The position numbers and the translations under genes were made by a program. The notes beneath the pieces were generated by a model. It was not told where the DNA came from. It ran no database searches and worked only from the letters and a program-made list of their open reading frames with translations. 32,000 bases of DNA from assembly GCF_000368925.1 (NCBI RefSeq), contig NZ_KB849756.1, positions 1 through 32,000 of the forward strand, written 5' to 3'. Within the stretch, counting starts at the first letter, position 1; each line of letters opens with the position of its first letter. The stretch comes from Acinetobacter bereziniae LMG 1003 = CIP 70.12 (GTDB lineage: Bacteria; Pseudomonadota; Gammaproteobacteria; Pseudomonadales; Moraxellaceae). This document shows, one piece after another, positions 8,347 to 14,359 of the stretch.

Positions 8347-8467
8347 AGGATACCATAGGCTGTGGCTACACAACGCTATTGTTGCTACAGCTCAGTAACT
8401 TGAATCTCTACGATCATAATTCACGTTGCTGAGTATTCCAATTAACATGATATAAGTTATGCAGAAT
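8336..8467. repeat. Second copy of the XerD-arm / stem-loop / inverted dif-like module
   Basis: Aligns with 3-134. The stems are retained with changed sequence (ctcagtaacttgaat ... attcacgttgctgag). Inverted site AATTAACATGA-TATAAG-TTATGCAGAAT at 8440-8467. Confidence 0.75.
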
Positions 8468-8824: not shown

Positions 8825-9044
8825 CTATCAAAACCCTAGCCCCATCATTTTAATTGGTGGTGAACTGCCACCAATCTCCTAGATAAATTTAGTCTATTCT
8901 TAAGGCTTTTTTAGTAGGAAAATATGTATTCATCGCTAGGTTCATAAACAAAATATTTTATAAATCATAATTTTAATTCTCTAAGTAATTAAATTTATTG
9001 TTTATTTAACATAAATTTAATTGTGAATTAGGTTCTAGATAAAC

Positions 9045-9125
9045 ATAAGTTAAATAAGATATCCAAGACTGTGGCACAATGCTGTTGTTTTTTAGGTAAT
9101 CAACATAACATAGTCTAAGACTACA
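9045..9125. repeat. Third, degenerate copy of the XerD-arm module
   Basis: ATAAGTTAAAT (9/11 to the XerD arm) is followed by aagatatccaagactgtggc, identical to 14-33. The similarity then decays and there is no XerC arm upstream. Confidence 0.65.
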
Positions 9126-9167
9126 TCCCATGTAACCTTGATGATTCAAAAAAAGAAATTCTTTTTA

Positions 9168-9407
9168 CTAACATTTTTTATAGAGATAAGATTTGATCAT
9201 TTCATTTGCTTGTATGTCTAATAATTCATCAGCCACCCAAAATACAAAAGACTGATCTTGGACAAACACTTTTTTCTTTATATATGTTGTCACCAAGTTA
9301 GATGAAGCATTCTTCACTTTAAAAGATTTTTTATAATTTACTTTTCCAAGCAGCTTACTGCCATTCCAAGGTCCACCGATACAAAAGTTCATAGTATTTT
9401 TTATCAA
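9168..9407 (-). CDS. Hypothetical 79-aa protein (GGPWNG motif near the N-terminus)
   Basis: ORF track only. An alternative start is MNFCIGGPWNG. Confidence 0.4.
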   Translation of the reverse strand: MIKNTMNFCIGGPWNGSKLLGKVNYKKSFKVKNASSNLVTTYIKKKVFVQDQSFVFWVADELLDIQANEMIKSYLYKKC

Positions 9408-9472
9408 TTATTCACGTAATAAATGTAATATATTTTGTTTAATTTTTAACTAATACTTTGGTCTAAGTATCC

Positions 9473-9498
9473 AATAAACCTCTGAAAAGAGGTTTATT
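9473..9498. terminator. Hairpin aataaacctct-gaaa-agaggtttatt between two minus-strand genes
   Basis: 11-bp stem and 4-nt loop, 12 nt downstream of the 9510 stop. Confidence 0.45.
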
Positions 9499-9509
9499 TA
9501 TTTCATATT

Positions 9510-9962
9510 TTAAGGAATAGAAAATTTAAGTGGCTGATCTTTTTGCTGTAAAGGTGCATTATTTTGCTTTAAAATTTGCTTTTGGTAGTCTTGCTCTGAG
9601 ATCACTCCCCTATTTCTTGCCTGTTGAATAGATTTTAATTGTTGCTCATAAGTATGTGCGTTCAAAGCCTGAGTATCATTGTTTTTAAGTAAATATTGAG
9701 ATCTTTCAAATGGACTCATATTTGAAGTATTGGCGCGATTTTCATTTATTCGGAGTACATTTGCATCACGTTGATTGATCTGATCTTTTTCTTGTTGTCT
9801 TGAAAGCTCAAAAAAATCAACTTGGTTATCATTGTTATTTTCATGTTGCGTTTCATTTTGCAGAAACACATAAGACTGAGGCTTCTTAAAGATATCTTCA
9901 GCACTATACACTGAACATGCAATTATTGATGTTATTAAGGTAGTTAAGAGTTTGTTCATCAT
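9510..9962 (-). CDS. Secreted Q/N-rich hypothetical protein with a SHOCT-like C-terminal motif
   Basis: Signal peptide MMNKLLTTLITSIIACSVYSA. ARNRGVISEQDYQKQILK resembles the SHOCT motif. Confidence 0.55.
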   Translation of the reverse strand: MMNKLLTTLITSIIACSVYSAEDIFKKPQSYVFLQNETQHENNNDNQVDFFELSRQQEKDQINQRDANVLRINENRANTSNMSPFERSQYLLKNNDTQALNAHTYEQQLKSIQQARNRGVISEQDYQKQILKQNNAPLQQKDQPLKFSIP

Positions 9963-10060
9963 AGATGTAAAATTTCAAATAAAAAAAGCAATCTTTATAT
10001 TTTATAATGGTGCTATTATATTTTCAAAGCTTAAAAAATTAACTTGAATAACAATTATTT

Positions 10061-10115
10061 GTCTAAATTTATCACAGATTTAGACTGCATAAAAACTCAC
10101 ACTAAGTGAGTTTTT
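10061..10115. terminator. Two adjacent hairpins; the second is a strong bidirectional rho-independent terminator
   Basis: gtctaaat/atttagac at 10061-10085. aaaaactcac-actaa-gtgagttttt at 10091-10115, a 10-bp stem flanked by A and T runs. Confidence 0.65.
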
Positions 10116-10161
10116 ATTTGTTGAATTTTCATTAATCATAGAAAATTACCATAGATACTGA

Positions 10162-10257
10162 TTAAAGATAATCTAAAGCTAACACCAAAAATAATAGAAT
10201 AATGGATAAAATTAAATATGTATTGATGTTATGAAAGCTCTTAAGATAGTCTAACAT
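10162..10257 (-). CDS. 31-aa hydrophobic peptide (MLDYLKSFHNINTYLILSIILLFLVLALDYL), type-I-toxin-like
   Basis: Hand translation. SD GGGAGA lies 6 nt upstream of the ATG. The terminator at 10091-10115 lies 47 nt downstream of the stop. Confidence 0.35.
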   Translation of the reverse strand: MLDYLKSFHNINTYLILSIILLFLVLALDYL

Positions 10258-10485
10258 TCGTTATCTCCCATAAGAATTTAATAAAATGCTACACGGGTGA
10301 TCATTTTTTAAAAGTTCAGGAAAACAAAACTAGACAAAAAAATACTCAATGAAATTCACTAATCGACTGATGAAACATTCATATAGATGTGATTGATAAC
10401 TATGCTAACTTACAGCACTCTATTTTTACTGAAAAAACAACAACTTGATCAAATGTTTATTCTAGAGTGCATTAACTAATCACCA

Positions 10486-10743
10486 TTAAACGATAAATTT
10501 AAATTCAAATTTTCCTTGATAATCAATTTGATCCAAATAATCTTTAATTTCATGAGCGATATTTCTAAATACTTCTAAAACATCGCTGGGTGGATCTATT
10601 AGTACTTCAATCTTAAAATTTTCATCATCTTTTTTTGTATGGTGTATATAAGTACCATCACAACTCATTTTTAACGTCAGATAATCTTCAATTGTGTCAG
10701 TAAACTGTTGTGTTACTAACTCAATTTTTGAAAACTTGTGCAT
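10486..10743 (-). CDS. Hypothetical acidic 85-aa protein
   Basis: ORF track only. Confidence 0.4.
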   Translation of the reverse strand: MHKFSKIELVTQQFTDTIEDYLTLKMSCDGTYIHHTKKDDENFKIEVLIDPPSDVLEVFRNIAHEIKDYLDQIDYQGKFEFKFIV

Positions 10744-10824
10744 TTGTATTTTTTCCTCAATCTTATTTCGCGATCTGATAAAGAATCTCGTCTAGAGTCC
10801 TTTTGGGCTATAAGATCGATCTGT

Positions 10825-10872
10825 TATAGAGACGATGGCGCTTAAGCTACGGGTCTCTATATCGTATTTTTT
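10825..10872 (+). terminator. Orphan hairpin tatagagac ... gtctctata followed by tcgtatttttt
   Basis: 9-bp stem (10825-10833 / 10853-10861) and 19-nt loop containing the palindrome gcttaagc. T-run on the plus strand. No plus-strand ORF lies upstream. Confidence 0.3.
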
Positions 10873-11070
10873 AGATATATTAATTTAAAATTAGCTAAAC
10901 AATCAACTTAAAATTTTAAAAGAATTATACCAATTTGAGATTTTGTATGACTTAATCAGCATTTTGTTCGTTTTTTTCTATTTAATTCTTATTTTTAATC
11001 TATATTGATGAAACCAAATTAACTGATTGAAAGCTGTAATTATTATTAAATTTAACCATCTGAGTAACGA

Positions 11071-11394
11071 TCAAGTATTCGATGATTTAAAAATTTTTTC
11101 AACAATATGCTCATGCGTAGGGATGAGCCCAGCTTTTAATCCAAGGGGTTTAAACACTTTATCAACAACAGATTGAGTAAGTTTTCCTTTATCTTGCTCG
11201 ATATCGCTCAGTGTACGTCGACTAATACCGACCAGTGTTGCATATTGTTCTTGTGACATACTTAATAGATTTTTCCGAAGATAAGCCAACAATTGCCCCA
11301 TGCTTATTTCATTCATTAAGTACTTTGTATACAAATCAATCAGAACTTGCTGGCGATCTTGTGGTTGTTTTTTAATATTCATAAAAGTTCCCAT
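11071..11394 (-). CDS. XRE-family HTH protein (candidate antitoxin of the HipA-like kinase)
   Basis: HTH_3-like MSQEQYATLVGISRRTLSDIEQDKGKLTQSVVDKVFKPLGL. The alternative ATG at 11382 overlaps the kinase stop as ATGA. Confidence 0.8.
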   Translation of the reverse strand: MGTFMNIKKQPQDRQQVLIDLYTKYLMNEISMGQLLAYLRKNLLSMSQEQYATLVGISRRTLSDIEQDKGKLTQSVVDKVFKPLGLKAGLIPTHEHIVEKIFKSSNT

Positions 11395-12710
11395 CGCTTT
11401 AATTTAGCTTCAATGTAGTCGAATGAGAGTACAGGCATTTCAATGATCTGTTTGGGTACGCCCTTGTCTATTAATCTTTGTTTGAGTCCAAGTAATTTAT
11501 TCGCCAATGATTTTAGCGTCTCCAAAGATATATCAGGATCACACCACGGCGCCAATTTCTGTGAAATTTGAATCCATTGGTATTCACCACCTTCTTCATA
11601 AGGACTTCCCCATGTTGTTGACCTAATCACATGCTCTGGGTCTGCTTTCATAGGAGCAAAATCATAAATCGGAGAAAGAAAAACATTTCCAGTCTTTTTT
11701 AAAAATGAAGTATTACGCCCATGATTATCTGAATTACCAAAAATGATATTAAGTAAATCTCGTTGTAGCCACTCGCAAACAAATTGAGTCGAATTAAACT
11801 TAGTATCTATGGTTTTAAGTAAAATACAAAGACTGTCAATCACTTCAAAATGATTAAGATGGCTCCCTGCTGACTTATTTAAAATTGAATACACTGATTC
11901 GAGTCCATATCGATGCCATCGTTGATCACGCCATTCAGTATCAAATCTTGGCAACCACAATGAAGGATACCTTTCACCTTCAATAAGCCGCATATTGGCA
12001 GTATCAATTGTACTAAAACCCAGTTCATTCAATTCATGGTAATAATAATATTCAGCTCTTAGAATGTTACAGTCAATTTCACTGCGATTATTTCTCGGAA
12101 ATTTAACCAAGTAATGCTGATCAGGAGTATCAAAGCTTTGTTGATAAGTATCAATCCAGACTTTTTGATCCGCTGTGTAACGCACAAGCAGTTTTGGTGC
12201 TTCACCACCTGCACCGGTTGCTCCCCCGCTGATAGCTCCCATTTGCTGTGCATACTCTAAAAAATCTGCATTACGATCAGCAACATCTGCCGTACTAAAT
12301 TTACGTAAATGTAAAGTAGACTCAGGATTTATGGGAGGAATTGATTCTTTAATTCGTAAATTTCCAACAGGTGCAATCACTCCTTTTTCTAATAAAATAC
12401 TGTCTTGTTCTGCATGTGAGAATTTTTGTAAGTTGAGATAGTTAATCCAATAACGTCGTGCAGCACCTGAAGGAATAATATCATCTAAAAAGCCAAACCA
12501 TGTTTTGGCTTCATGTTTAATAATCAGTTGCACTGGAAGCGATAAACTACAAGCATGTTCATCCCTTTTGTCTAAATATGAAATGGCGTATTCAATTTGG
12601 TACTCTAGTTCACAGGGACTCGCCGATCCCTTTTCAGGATCTAATATTTTAAGTTCTGCTATATCTAACCAGTGCGTATCAAATAATGCCTGTATTGTAA
12701 ATTTCTTCAT
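11379..12710 (-). CDS. HipA-family Ser/Thr kinase-like protein
   Basis: N-terminal IPSGAARRYW (LPEG-like). Glycine-rich loop ISGGATGAGGEAPKLLV. Catalytic FGNSDNHGRNTSF. Downstream PIYDFAP. Length 443 aa. Confidence 0.8.
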   Translation of the reverse strand: MKKFTIQALFDTHWLDIAELKILDPEKGSASPCELEYQIEYAISYLDKRDEHACSLSLPVQLIIKHEAKTWFGFLDDIIPSGAARRYWINYLNLQKFSHAEQDSILLEKGVIAPVGNLRIKESIPPINPESTLHLRKFSTADVADRNADFLEYAQQMGAISGGATGAGGEAPKLLVRYTADQKVWIDTYQQSFDTPDQHYLVKFPRNNRSEIDCNILRAEYYYYHELNELGFSTIDTANMRLIEGERYPSLWLPRFDTEWRDQRWHRYGLESVYSILNKSAGSHLNHFEVIDSLCILLKTIDTKFNSTQFVCEWLQRDLLNIIFGNSDNHGRNTSFLKKTGNVFLSPIYDFAPMKADPEHVIRSTTWGSPYEEGGEYQWIQISQKLAPWCDPDISLETLKSLANKLLGLKQRLIDKGVPKQIIEMPVLSFDYIEAKLKRWELL

Positions 12711-12719
12711 AAATAGAAA

Positions 12720-12819
12720 TGAGCAGTAATTTGCTCAAAATTAGCATGAAAAATAATAAATGTGAATATATTTGCTCATAATTATTCGTCTAAAGAATTT
12801 TTGTGCATATTTTTGCTCA
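12720..12819. promoter_or_regulatory. Three TTTGCTCA boxes spaced exactly 41 bp apart; the first is part of the palindrome TGAGCA-N6-TGCTCA
   Basis: Boxes at 12730-12737, 12771-12778 and 12812-12819. Palindrome at 12720-12737. Located directly upstream of the kinase start at 12710. Confidence 0.55.
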
Positions 12820-12874
12820 ATTATTTCAATAACTACAACCAATGTTCTCTGAACTTCTATACCAAAATTTCAAA

Positions 12875-13451: not shown

Positions 13452-14359
13452 ATGTCACATCAATCCAATACCGCTTTAGGTATCACCCTCAATGTCATCG
13501 CTTCAATACTGTTTGCAATTATGTTTGCCTACACCGCCTTATTGGGTGCATTAGAGGGAAATGAAATATATGGTTGGCGAATTTTACTTACCTTACCCTG
13601 TTTGACACTTTTCATCATTGCTCAGGGAAATTGGTCACAGGTCAGACAGATTTATGAGCGCTTATATAAAGAACGTCTTTTTTTATATTCACTCGTCTGA
13701 TTTCTTCATTTCTAATTGGATTACAACTTTGGTTATTTATGTGGGCGCCTCAGCATGGATATGGATTAGATGTTTCCCTCGGTTACTTTATGATGCCCAT
13801 CACAATGGTTATTTTGGGAAGAGTTGCGTTTAAAGATAAAATGTCAGGTTGGCAAAAGTTATCCTGTCTTTTTGCAATATTCGGCGTGATTCATATGTTG
13901 TTTGTATCATCAACCCTTACATGGCCAACACTACTGATTTGTTTGGGCTACCCAATTTATTTTTGGCTAAGGCAGAAAACCAATACCAATAATATCGGTG
14001 GGGTTTGGTTCGATATGATACTCAGTCTGCCTTTGAGTATTTTCTTTATTCTCAAAGGTGGTGTTTTAACAGGTGCTTTAGGCTCACCTTCTTATACATT
14101 CACGTTAATTTTAGGGCTAGGCTTAATTAGTGCCCTTGCATTAGGATTTCAGTCTCTTTCAGCGCCACATCTGAATTTGAGCTTGTTTGGACTTTTGGTC
14201 TATGTTGAACCTGTTTTGCTATTTATTGTTGCAATCATATTCGGTGAGACAATTCATGCAACTGAATGGCCAACCTATATCGCGATTTGGATGGCAGTCT
14301 GTGTATTGGTTATTGAAGGTCTCATAAGTCTAAAGAAAAAAAGCAGTACTCAAGTATAA
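13452..14359 (+). pseudogene. rarD: rarD-like EamA/DMT transporter interrupted by a frameshift in a T7 run
   Basis: Frame 1 (13452-13700) and frame 3 (open from 13670, to 14359) together read as one RarD-like protein (...LIG-LQLWLFMWAPQHGYGLDVSLGYF...). One extra T in the run at 13678-13684 would give a continuous 302-aa ORF. Confidence 0.75.

Follow-up and report, generated by a model that had tools for sequence, protein, structure and literature searches.

In Escherichia coli K-12, the HipA kinase phosphorylates GltX and its partner HipB binds operators of the form TATCC-N8-GGATA. A pair with the reversed order, hipA then hipB, was studied by Zhao et al. in 2022 (PMC8978831) on the island GI21 of Shewanella putrefaciens CN-32, where Sputcn32_2916 encodes a kinase of 448 amino acids (aa) and Sputcn32_2915 a partner of 152 aa. 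These authors found that CN-32 HipA is toxic in E. coli and is neutralised by CN-32 HipB, that the promoter is repressed 2.1-fold by HipB and 2.9-fold by HipA/HipB, and that the module stabilises both GI21 and a plasmid. We analysed here a pair of the same order in Acinetobacter bereziniae LMG 1003 = CIP 70.12, in a window of 32,000 nucleotides of this genome: a HipA-superfamily kinase gene is followed by a gene encoding a helix-turn-helix (HTH) protein of the XRE type, both on the minus strand. We read this chromosomal locus, with a probability of about 0.8, as a two-gene, reverse-order type II toxin-antitoxin (TA) operon, hipA then hipB.

Two other sets of described modules are close in layout. 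In the classification of Gerdes, Baerentsen and Brodersen in 2021 (PMC8262856), HipE/hipEB constitutes clade IX, which is deep-branching, wholly reverse-ordered and numbered just before the HipH clade X; neither HipE/hipEB nor the reversed hipAB subclades are listed by the authors as experimentally analysed. These groups and the window pair have in common a downstream HTH antitoxin gene, a HipA-sized kinase and the N-subdomain 1, and we infer that the window family fits clade IX. On the integrative and conjugative element (ICE) R391, deletion of hipA in a hipAB-like module leads to 12-fold more ICE loss (Carraro et al. 2015, PMC4489591). This module has overlapping hipA and hipB open reading frames (ORFs), a XRE partner and a mobile location; the likeness is one of layout. 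A link to R391 was sought through the Proteus and Vibrio homologues described below; these loci are not SXT/R391 elements.

The gene pair and its Shewanella relative

The kinase gene (12710..11379, minus strand), identified from the ORF list and the sequence, encodes a hipA-like Ser/Thr kinase of 443 aa, the putative toxin, which matches Pfam HipA_C with 84.1 bits (gathering cutoff 30.5, E 1.4e-23). The second gene (11382..11071, minus strand) encodes a hipB-like protein of 103 aa, the putative antitoxin and autorepressor, in which only XRE-type HTH domains are found: it reaches 39.2 bits against Pfam HTH_3 (cutoff 23), and 34.8 bits against the NCBIfam model couple_hipB, which is below the cutoff of that model. 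On direct reading of the sequence, the ATG of the HTH gene (11382..11380) shares bases with the TGA of the kinase gene (11381..11379); the resulting ATGA overlap (11382..11379, minus strand) is a candidate for translational coupling of hipB to hipA. ORFs, Pfam and sequence agree here with the initial annotation, which had described a HipA-family kinase gene followed by an ATGA-coupled XRE HTH gene, in an order reversed compared to E. coli hipBA. The two motifs quoted at that time are present in the kinase, the glycine-rich loop GGATGAGGEAPK at residues 162-173 and GNSDNHGRN at residues 325-333. The exact kinase sequence is that of ENV96663.1 (F938_02067) and occurs in many A. bereziniae assemblies.

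Gene callers disagree on the length of the HTH protein (103 vs 107 aa). The longer form of the ORF extends over 11394..11071 on the minus strand, and its in-frame ATG at 11382 gives the 103-aa form. The HTH partners of nine family loci align from the Met of the ATGA overlap, with a conserved core of about 90 aa, and the upstream ATG (11394; segment 11383-11394, minus strand) arises from Arg-Trp codons (CGA TGG) that are conserved close to the C-terminal end of the kinase. Because the nine partners align at the ATGA Met and the upstream ATG appears as a by-product of kinase codons, the 103-aa form is the likely product. An upstream-ATG artefact of the same kind is visible in the partner of a Vibrio locus, L026 (MGASM...). 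Both genes are intact in 10 further A. bereziniae contigs; across these contigs the ratio of nonsynonymous to synonymous polymorphism (pN/pS) of the kinase is about 0.1, and the HTH protein shows no amino-acid change. This intactness and the low pN/pS indicate real genes under purifying selection rather than chance ORFs.

The CN-32 pair was compared by means of a proxy, the S. xiamenensis protein P0172 (448 aa), reached by a second protein search seeded with the homologue of an Ewingella plasmid and then by primer mapping. Its locus, L017, is a near-allele of the CN-32 pair. Among the published CN-32 primers (Table 3 of PMC8978831), hipA-F, hipA-R and down-F map to L017 with 0 mismatches and hipB-F and hipB-R with 1 each, at the expected positions, and the downstream neighbours are those of GI21, i.e. 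a 218-aa protein and a 141-aa XRE protein. In a scan of genome contigs, hipA-F gave only a chance match, within a 382-aa ORF of a Treponema metagenome-assembled genome that is unrelated. Alignment of the window kinase with P0172 (443/448 residues, E 2e-153) gives 53% identity, and the window HTH protein is 40% identical to L017 HipB over 80 residues (E 4e-24). As both proteins are homologous to those of this CN-32-type pair, the window pair belongs to a reversed HipAB family that has been characterised experimentally. The two pairs share the kinase-first order, the ATGA overlap and both protein families, and their kinases are identical in the Gly-rich loop GGATGAGGEAPKLL and in the catalytic FGNSDNHGRNT. 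The opinion that such reversed arrangements are largely uncharacterised is outdated for this family: the 53%-identical Sputcn32_2916/2915 pair was demonstrated to be a functional TA module (PMC8978831), and the NCBI name of the window kinase is already "type II toxin-antitoxin system HipA family toxin". Differences nevertheless exist. The 152-aa CN-32 HipB has an N-terminal extension of about 50-70 aa, with no counterpart in the window HipB, and the window pair occupies a fixed chromosomal place next to an AsnC-family regulator gene whereas the CN-32 pair lies on an excisable island.

Kinase fold, conserved order and upstream palindromes

An exhaustive search of 1.84 billion cluster representatives yielded 177 representatives at E <= 1e-30; the kinase family is a moderate-sized clade, with full-length homologues of about 441-451 aa. 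Identity to the window kinase is 70-86% in other Acinetobacter species, 54-62% in Marinomonas, Shewanella, Halomonas and Zobellella, and about 50% in Enterobacterales, Vibrio and Proteus. Plasmid-borne relatives are found in A. towneri (77%), Ewingella and Rahnella (51%), Pseudomonas (38%), Marinobacter (35%) and A. baumannii (32%). The kinase-then-XRE-HTH order was found in every locus inspected (Acinetobacter, Shewanella, Ewingella, Proteus and Vibrio), usually with an overlap of 4 nt, as in loci L008, L015, L016, L017, L019, L021, L024 and L039. In the Vibrio locus L026 the called start gives an overlap of 16 nt, which becomes 4 nt if the internal Met aligned with the start of the other partners is used. 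Kinase-first order and 4-nt overlap go together in all nine of the close family loci inspected. The gene order is kept down to 32-38% kinase identity, on plasmids of Pseudomonas, Marinobacter and A. baumannii. Since it is seen in every locus inspected, the kinase-first order is a trait of the whole clade and not a local rearrangement. The three distant plasmid loci (L039, L040 and L041, from Pseudomonas, A. baumannii and Marinobacter, respectively) have the order kept and a DNHGRNT-type catalytic motif; a simple pattern search of their kinases did not find a GGATGAGGEAPK-type loop. This distant branch may also include a "hipA/B" reported on pAbe229-114, a plasmid of A. bereziniae (PMC6863613).

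The AlphaFold2 model of the window kinase has a predicted local distance difference test score (pLDDT) of 88.4 and a predicted template modelling score (pTM) of 0.90. It superposes over its full length on the HipA proteins of E. coli and S. oneidensis (Foldseek template modelling score 0.61-0.73, about 15% identity): the matches to 3DNU and 3DNT (E. coli HipA) and to 4PU5, with scores of 0.65-0.72, extend over about 470 aligned columns, and HipT structures match the kinase core only. A phmmer search of the kinase against PDB sequences gave no match, and the family profile gave only a weak one, in the catalytic loop (E 2e-3). The relation to solved structures is thus based on the predicted fold, according to which the kinase has the HipA architecture with N-subdomain 1, combined with HipH-like active-site motifs. 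Four residues are invariant among 33 family members and in an 8-sequence alignment including HipA and HipH: K203, D328 and N333, which correspond to the catalytic Lys K181, Asp D309 and Asn N314 of E. coli HipA, and D350, which corresponds to the Mg-binding Asp D332. The loop at residues 162-173 is invariant in the family except for Gly168 (conserved in at least 90%), and is the sole low-confidence segment of the model. Its Thr165 aligns with Ser150, the autophosphorylation site of HipA. That this loop is unlike the one of HipA, as had been noticed from the sequence at the outset, is borne out by the alignment, in which HipA has SVAGAQEK.

By sequence, the closest characterised kinase core is HipH/YjjJ. 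BLASTP aligns 205 residues with HipH/YjjJ at 27% identity (E 1e-10) and 175 residues with E. coli HipA at 25% (E 9e-6), and hhalign of the family profile gives E 3.7e-12 to HipH vs 5.6e-5 to HipA; the best NCBIfam model is YjjJ (PRK09775), of which only the core is matched, with 41.2 bits for a cutoff of 401. The sequence comparisons place the kinase family nearer to HipH/YjjJ than to HipA. The two kinases are similar in the loop (SSAGGEQPKF in HipH, TGAGGEAPKL in the window kinase) and in the catalytic motif (NSDMHAGN and NSDNHGRN, respectively). HipH is monocistronic with a fused N-terminal HTH, whereas the N-terminus of the window kinase is a HipA-type subdomain and the HTH is encoded by a separate downstream gene. 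With E. coli K-12 HipBA the window pair shares the full-length fold, the catalytic Lys/Asp/Asn/Asp, a XRE HTH partner and multiple phased operators in the promoter, which are predicted here; it differs by the downstream position of the antitoxin gene, by the C-terminal tail of HipB, which is not conserved, and by the sequences of loop and operator. Unlike HipBST, which comprises a short kinase without N-subdomain 1 and HipS, the window kinase possesses the N-subdomain and no HipS-like gene is present. It differs also from HipAD (DS-6), whose partner is DUF3037/DUF1829 (PMC13092281), the window partner being of XRE-type HTH only.

The 164 intergenic base pairs that separate the AsnC-family regulator gene from the kinase gene contain three operator-like sites of 18 bp on the minus strand, exactly 41 bp apart, with the consensus TGAG(C/T)A-N6-T(G/A)CTCA. 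O1 (TGAGCA-AATTAC-TGCTCA, 12737..12720) is a perfect palindrome and ends 10 nt before the kinase ATG. O2 (TGAGCA-AATATA-TTCACA, 12778..12761) lies 41 bp from O1, and O3 (TGAGCA-AAAATA-TGCACA, 12819..12802) 41 bp from O2. When TGAGYA-N6-TRCWCA was searched with at most one mismatch, all matches in the 32-kb window fell within one upstream stretch of 100 bp (five strand-matches, compared to 1.35 expected over 32 kb). Counted as TGAGCA...TGCTCA or TGAGTA...TACTCA, the palindrome is also present upstream of hipA in other loci: four copies in Shewanella L008, three on the A. towneri plasmid, and two in the CN-32-type loci L017 and L019 and in Vibrio L026, in all these cases 41 bp apart; two copies 82 bp apart in A. 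pittii L024; and one copy in Proteus L021. The CN-32-type loci, with two sites where the window has three, carry the form TGAGTA-N6-TACTCA. The E. coli HipB operator TATCC-N8-GGATA was not found in 12711-12874 with up to two mismatches. A predicted sigma-70-type promoter, TTTAGA-18-TATATT (12794..12765, minus strand), matches the consensus at 9/12 positions; its -10 hexamer lies within O2, and O1 is situated between promoter and start codon. This proposal of phased palindromes is new, the CN-32 paper having described no operator, and concerns predicted sites. The segment 12737..12720 was also returned as a terminator-like hit; it is the O1 palindrome, and since its position and phasing are conserved we read it as an operator and dropped the terminator. 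No convincing terminator was seen downstream of hipB.

Proposed mechanism and competing explanations

In the mechanism that we propose, one promoter upstream of the kinase gene would drive both hipA and hipB, and hipB would be translated through coupling at the ATGA overlap. Free kinase would phosphorylate an essential cellular protein and so arrest growth; by analogy with HipA and HipT, the target would most likely belong to the translation apparatus. The 103-aa XRE protein would bind and neutralise the kinase and, alone or in complex, would bind the three phased palindromes over the -10 region and the leader, leading to repression of the operon. Autophosphorylation of Thr165 may self-limit the kinase. 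Homology and gene order with its overlap are read from the sequence, and structure prediction adds the fold, the catalytic residues being located by both and the operator architecture being predicted from the palindromes. Toxicity, neutralisation, promoter repression and stabilisation of mobile DNA were measured on the 53%-identical relative, and would extend to the A. bereziniae proteins by analogy. A more specific suggestion, which we put forward only tentatively, is that the target of the clade is none of the synthetases known to be phosphorylated by HipA/HipT (GltX, TrpS, LysS), with HipB acting via distinct phased operators (18-bp palindromes every 41 bp). If true, the family would be a mechanistically separate kinase toxin and not a rearranged HipBA.

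Several points weigh against a TA operon at this locus. An identity of 53% to the toxic CN-32 kinase does not guarantee that the window kinase is toxic, and in the CN-32 paper itself (PMC8978831) kinase activity, target and operator are not shown. The mode of neutralisation might differ between the two HipB proteins, the N-terminal extension being absent here. No clear Shine-Dalgarno sequence is seen before the kinase ATG, and promoter-like matches in the upstream region are no commoner than in shuffles, so that the predicted promoter is supported by its position and not by the match count. Finally, a domesticated function would account for the fixation of the pair in the chromosome no less well than an addiction module would.

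In the explanation to which this last point leads, the kinase would be domesticated and non-toxic; paired with a transcription factor of its own, it would act in signalling and tune physiology in the manner of HipH. The proximity to HipH/YjjJ described above (hhalign 3.7e-12 vs 5.6e-5, best NCBIfam model YjjJ) goes in this direction, as do the single fixed site in the species under purifying selection and the housekeeping surroundings, found also in Proteus and in one Shewanella lineage. We consider it improbable all the same: the CN-32 kinase is toxic and neutralised by its partner (PMC8978831), HipH itself is called a toxin in the title of PMC9948734, two overlapping genes behind phased operators are the classic design of TA autoregulation, and many family members reside on plasmids or islands beside other TA pairs. 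That the two genes merely adjoin without being related, the HTH gene having a transcription unit of its own, is hardly credible. A weak promoter-like match exists inside the 3' end of the kinase gene (11470..11443, minus strand), but all family loci examined keep the order, at kinase identities between 100% and 32% and in at least six genera, usually with the 4-nt overlap, and the HTH partners are homologous to each other.

Another explanation concerns the role of the module rather than its TA mechanism, and could coexist with the TA reading: the main function would be anti-phage abortive infection, in which a phage depletes or sequesters HipB and the freed kinase shuts the cell down. A HipA-family system, HipAD/DS-6, is validated for defence and needs its catalytic residue (PMC13092281), and defence roles have been proposed for Hip modules by Gerdes et al. 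(PMC8262856); locally, a filamentous prophage occupies a dif site at a distance of 2.6 kb from the pair, and the variable region of some strains contains AAA_15/AAA_21 ATPase genes. However, the partner of HipAD is not a XRE HTH protein, PADLOC returned only a weak local match (PDC-M03A, E 4.9e-6 over 54 residues), tblastn against 50,697 phage records gave zero family homologues, and the adjoining genes are metabolic and regulatory and form no defence island. The sole experimental data for the family concern the stabilisation of mobile DNA, which is the only role demonstrated in it (CN-32). We hold abortive infection as the main role to be unlikely, though less so than a domesticated kinase.

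Read as a TA operon, the pair adds a chromosomal, species-fixed Acinetobacter example to the reverse-order HipA-kinase family, experimentally tested once so far, on a Shewanella island. The candidate operator, whose 41-bp phasing is conserved across genera, is directly testable. The pair is a candidate for persistence or antibiotic tolerance in Acinetobacter; it does not constitute a new category of system.

Genomic setting of the pair

The upstream side of the pair contains the AsnC/Lrp regulator gene, on the same strand as the kinase, a rarD/EamA-type gene and genes of fatty-acid degradation. The opposite side has three small conserved ORFs without Pfam hits and then a variable region. An identical AsnC protein is encoded by 10 sampled A. 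bereziniae contigs, and all of them (10/10) carry the pair at the same site, from which we conclude that it is fixed within the species. An empty site was sought, and the hypothesis of a strain-variable gene was rejected. The description of the locus as accessory consequently does not hold within A. bereziniae, but is correct for other taxa, in which plasmids and islands carry the family. One pair is found on a mobilizable plasmid of A. towneri. In A. pittii L024 (CP066124.1; 5266-13266), the pair is included in an insert of about 7 kb between two copies of a 146-aa HD_4 gene, together with a YoeB toxin gene and UmuC-like (IMS) genes, and this insert looks like an island inserted with target duplication. 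The pair of Vibrio L026 is on an island with integrases and RelE, CcdAB and ParE modules. In Proteus and one Shewanella lineage, it lies among housekeeping genes.

The GC content is 35% at the pair, 26-29% just beside it and about 40% further on, as expected from the AT-rich stretch reported initially. The poorest segment (9000-11000, 26-29% GC) contains an 85-aa ORF (10486-10743) and a 150-aa ORF (9510-9962) with a signal-peptide-like N-terminus, both without Pfam hit. Both are conserved and accompany the pair in every A. bereziniae contig seen; a third ORF, of 74 aa and situated beyond them, is called in most. None of the three was found next to family members in other genera. No Rfam match was obtained in the window. 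The proximity of a dif site and prophage, also reported initially, was found again: a filamentous (inovirus-like) prophage (987-7406) encodes a Zot-like protein of 489 aa, a DUF2523 protein, a 561-aa coiled-coil protein and a Rep_trans initiator of 507 aa, and is flanked by two XerC/D dif-like 28-mers (107-134 and 8440-8467, both on the minus strand), which deviate from the Acinetobacter dif pattern at 2 and 3 positions, for 0.01 matches expected by chance. The nearer of the two is the one situated 2.6 kb from the pair.

The surroundings vary between A. bereziniae strains. Loci L029, L030 and L037 are without prophage, and L033 has a different one (Phage_CRI). In GCA_037028945.1 (L002, 12384-15764), small prophage ORFs of 147, 68, 81 and 69 aa occur twice in tandem, as if several filamentous prophage genomes were arrayed one behind the other at dif. 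Beyond the small ORFs, the variable region of L003 and L007 contains a 340-aa protein, an AAA_15/AAA_21 ATPase (363 aa) and a 270-aa protein, with an adjoining transposase fragment; these genes may form a cassette of the defence type. The rarD/EamA-type permease, encoded by a single 301-aa gene in other strains (L003, L029-L033), is represented in the window by two plus-strand ORFs of 82 aa (13452-13700) and 206 aa (13739-14359); a frameshift or nonsense mutation has probably turned it into a pseudogene in this strain.

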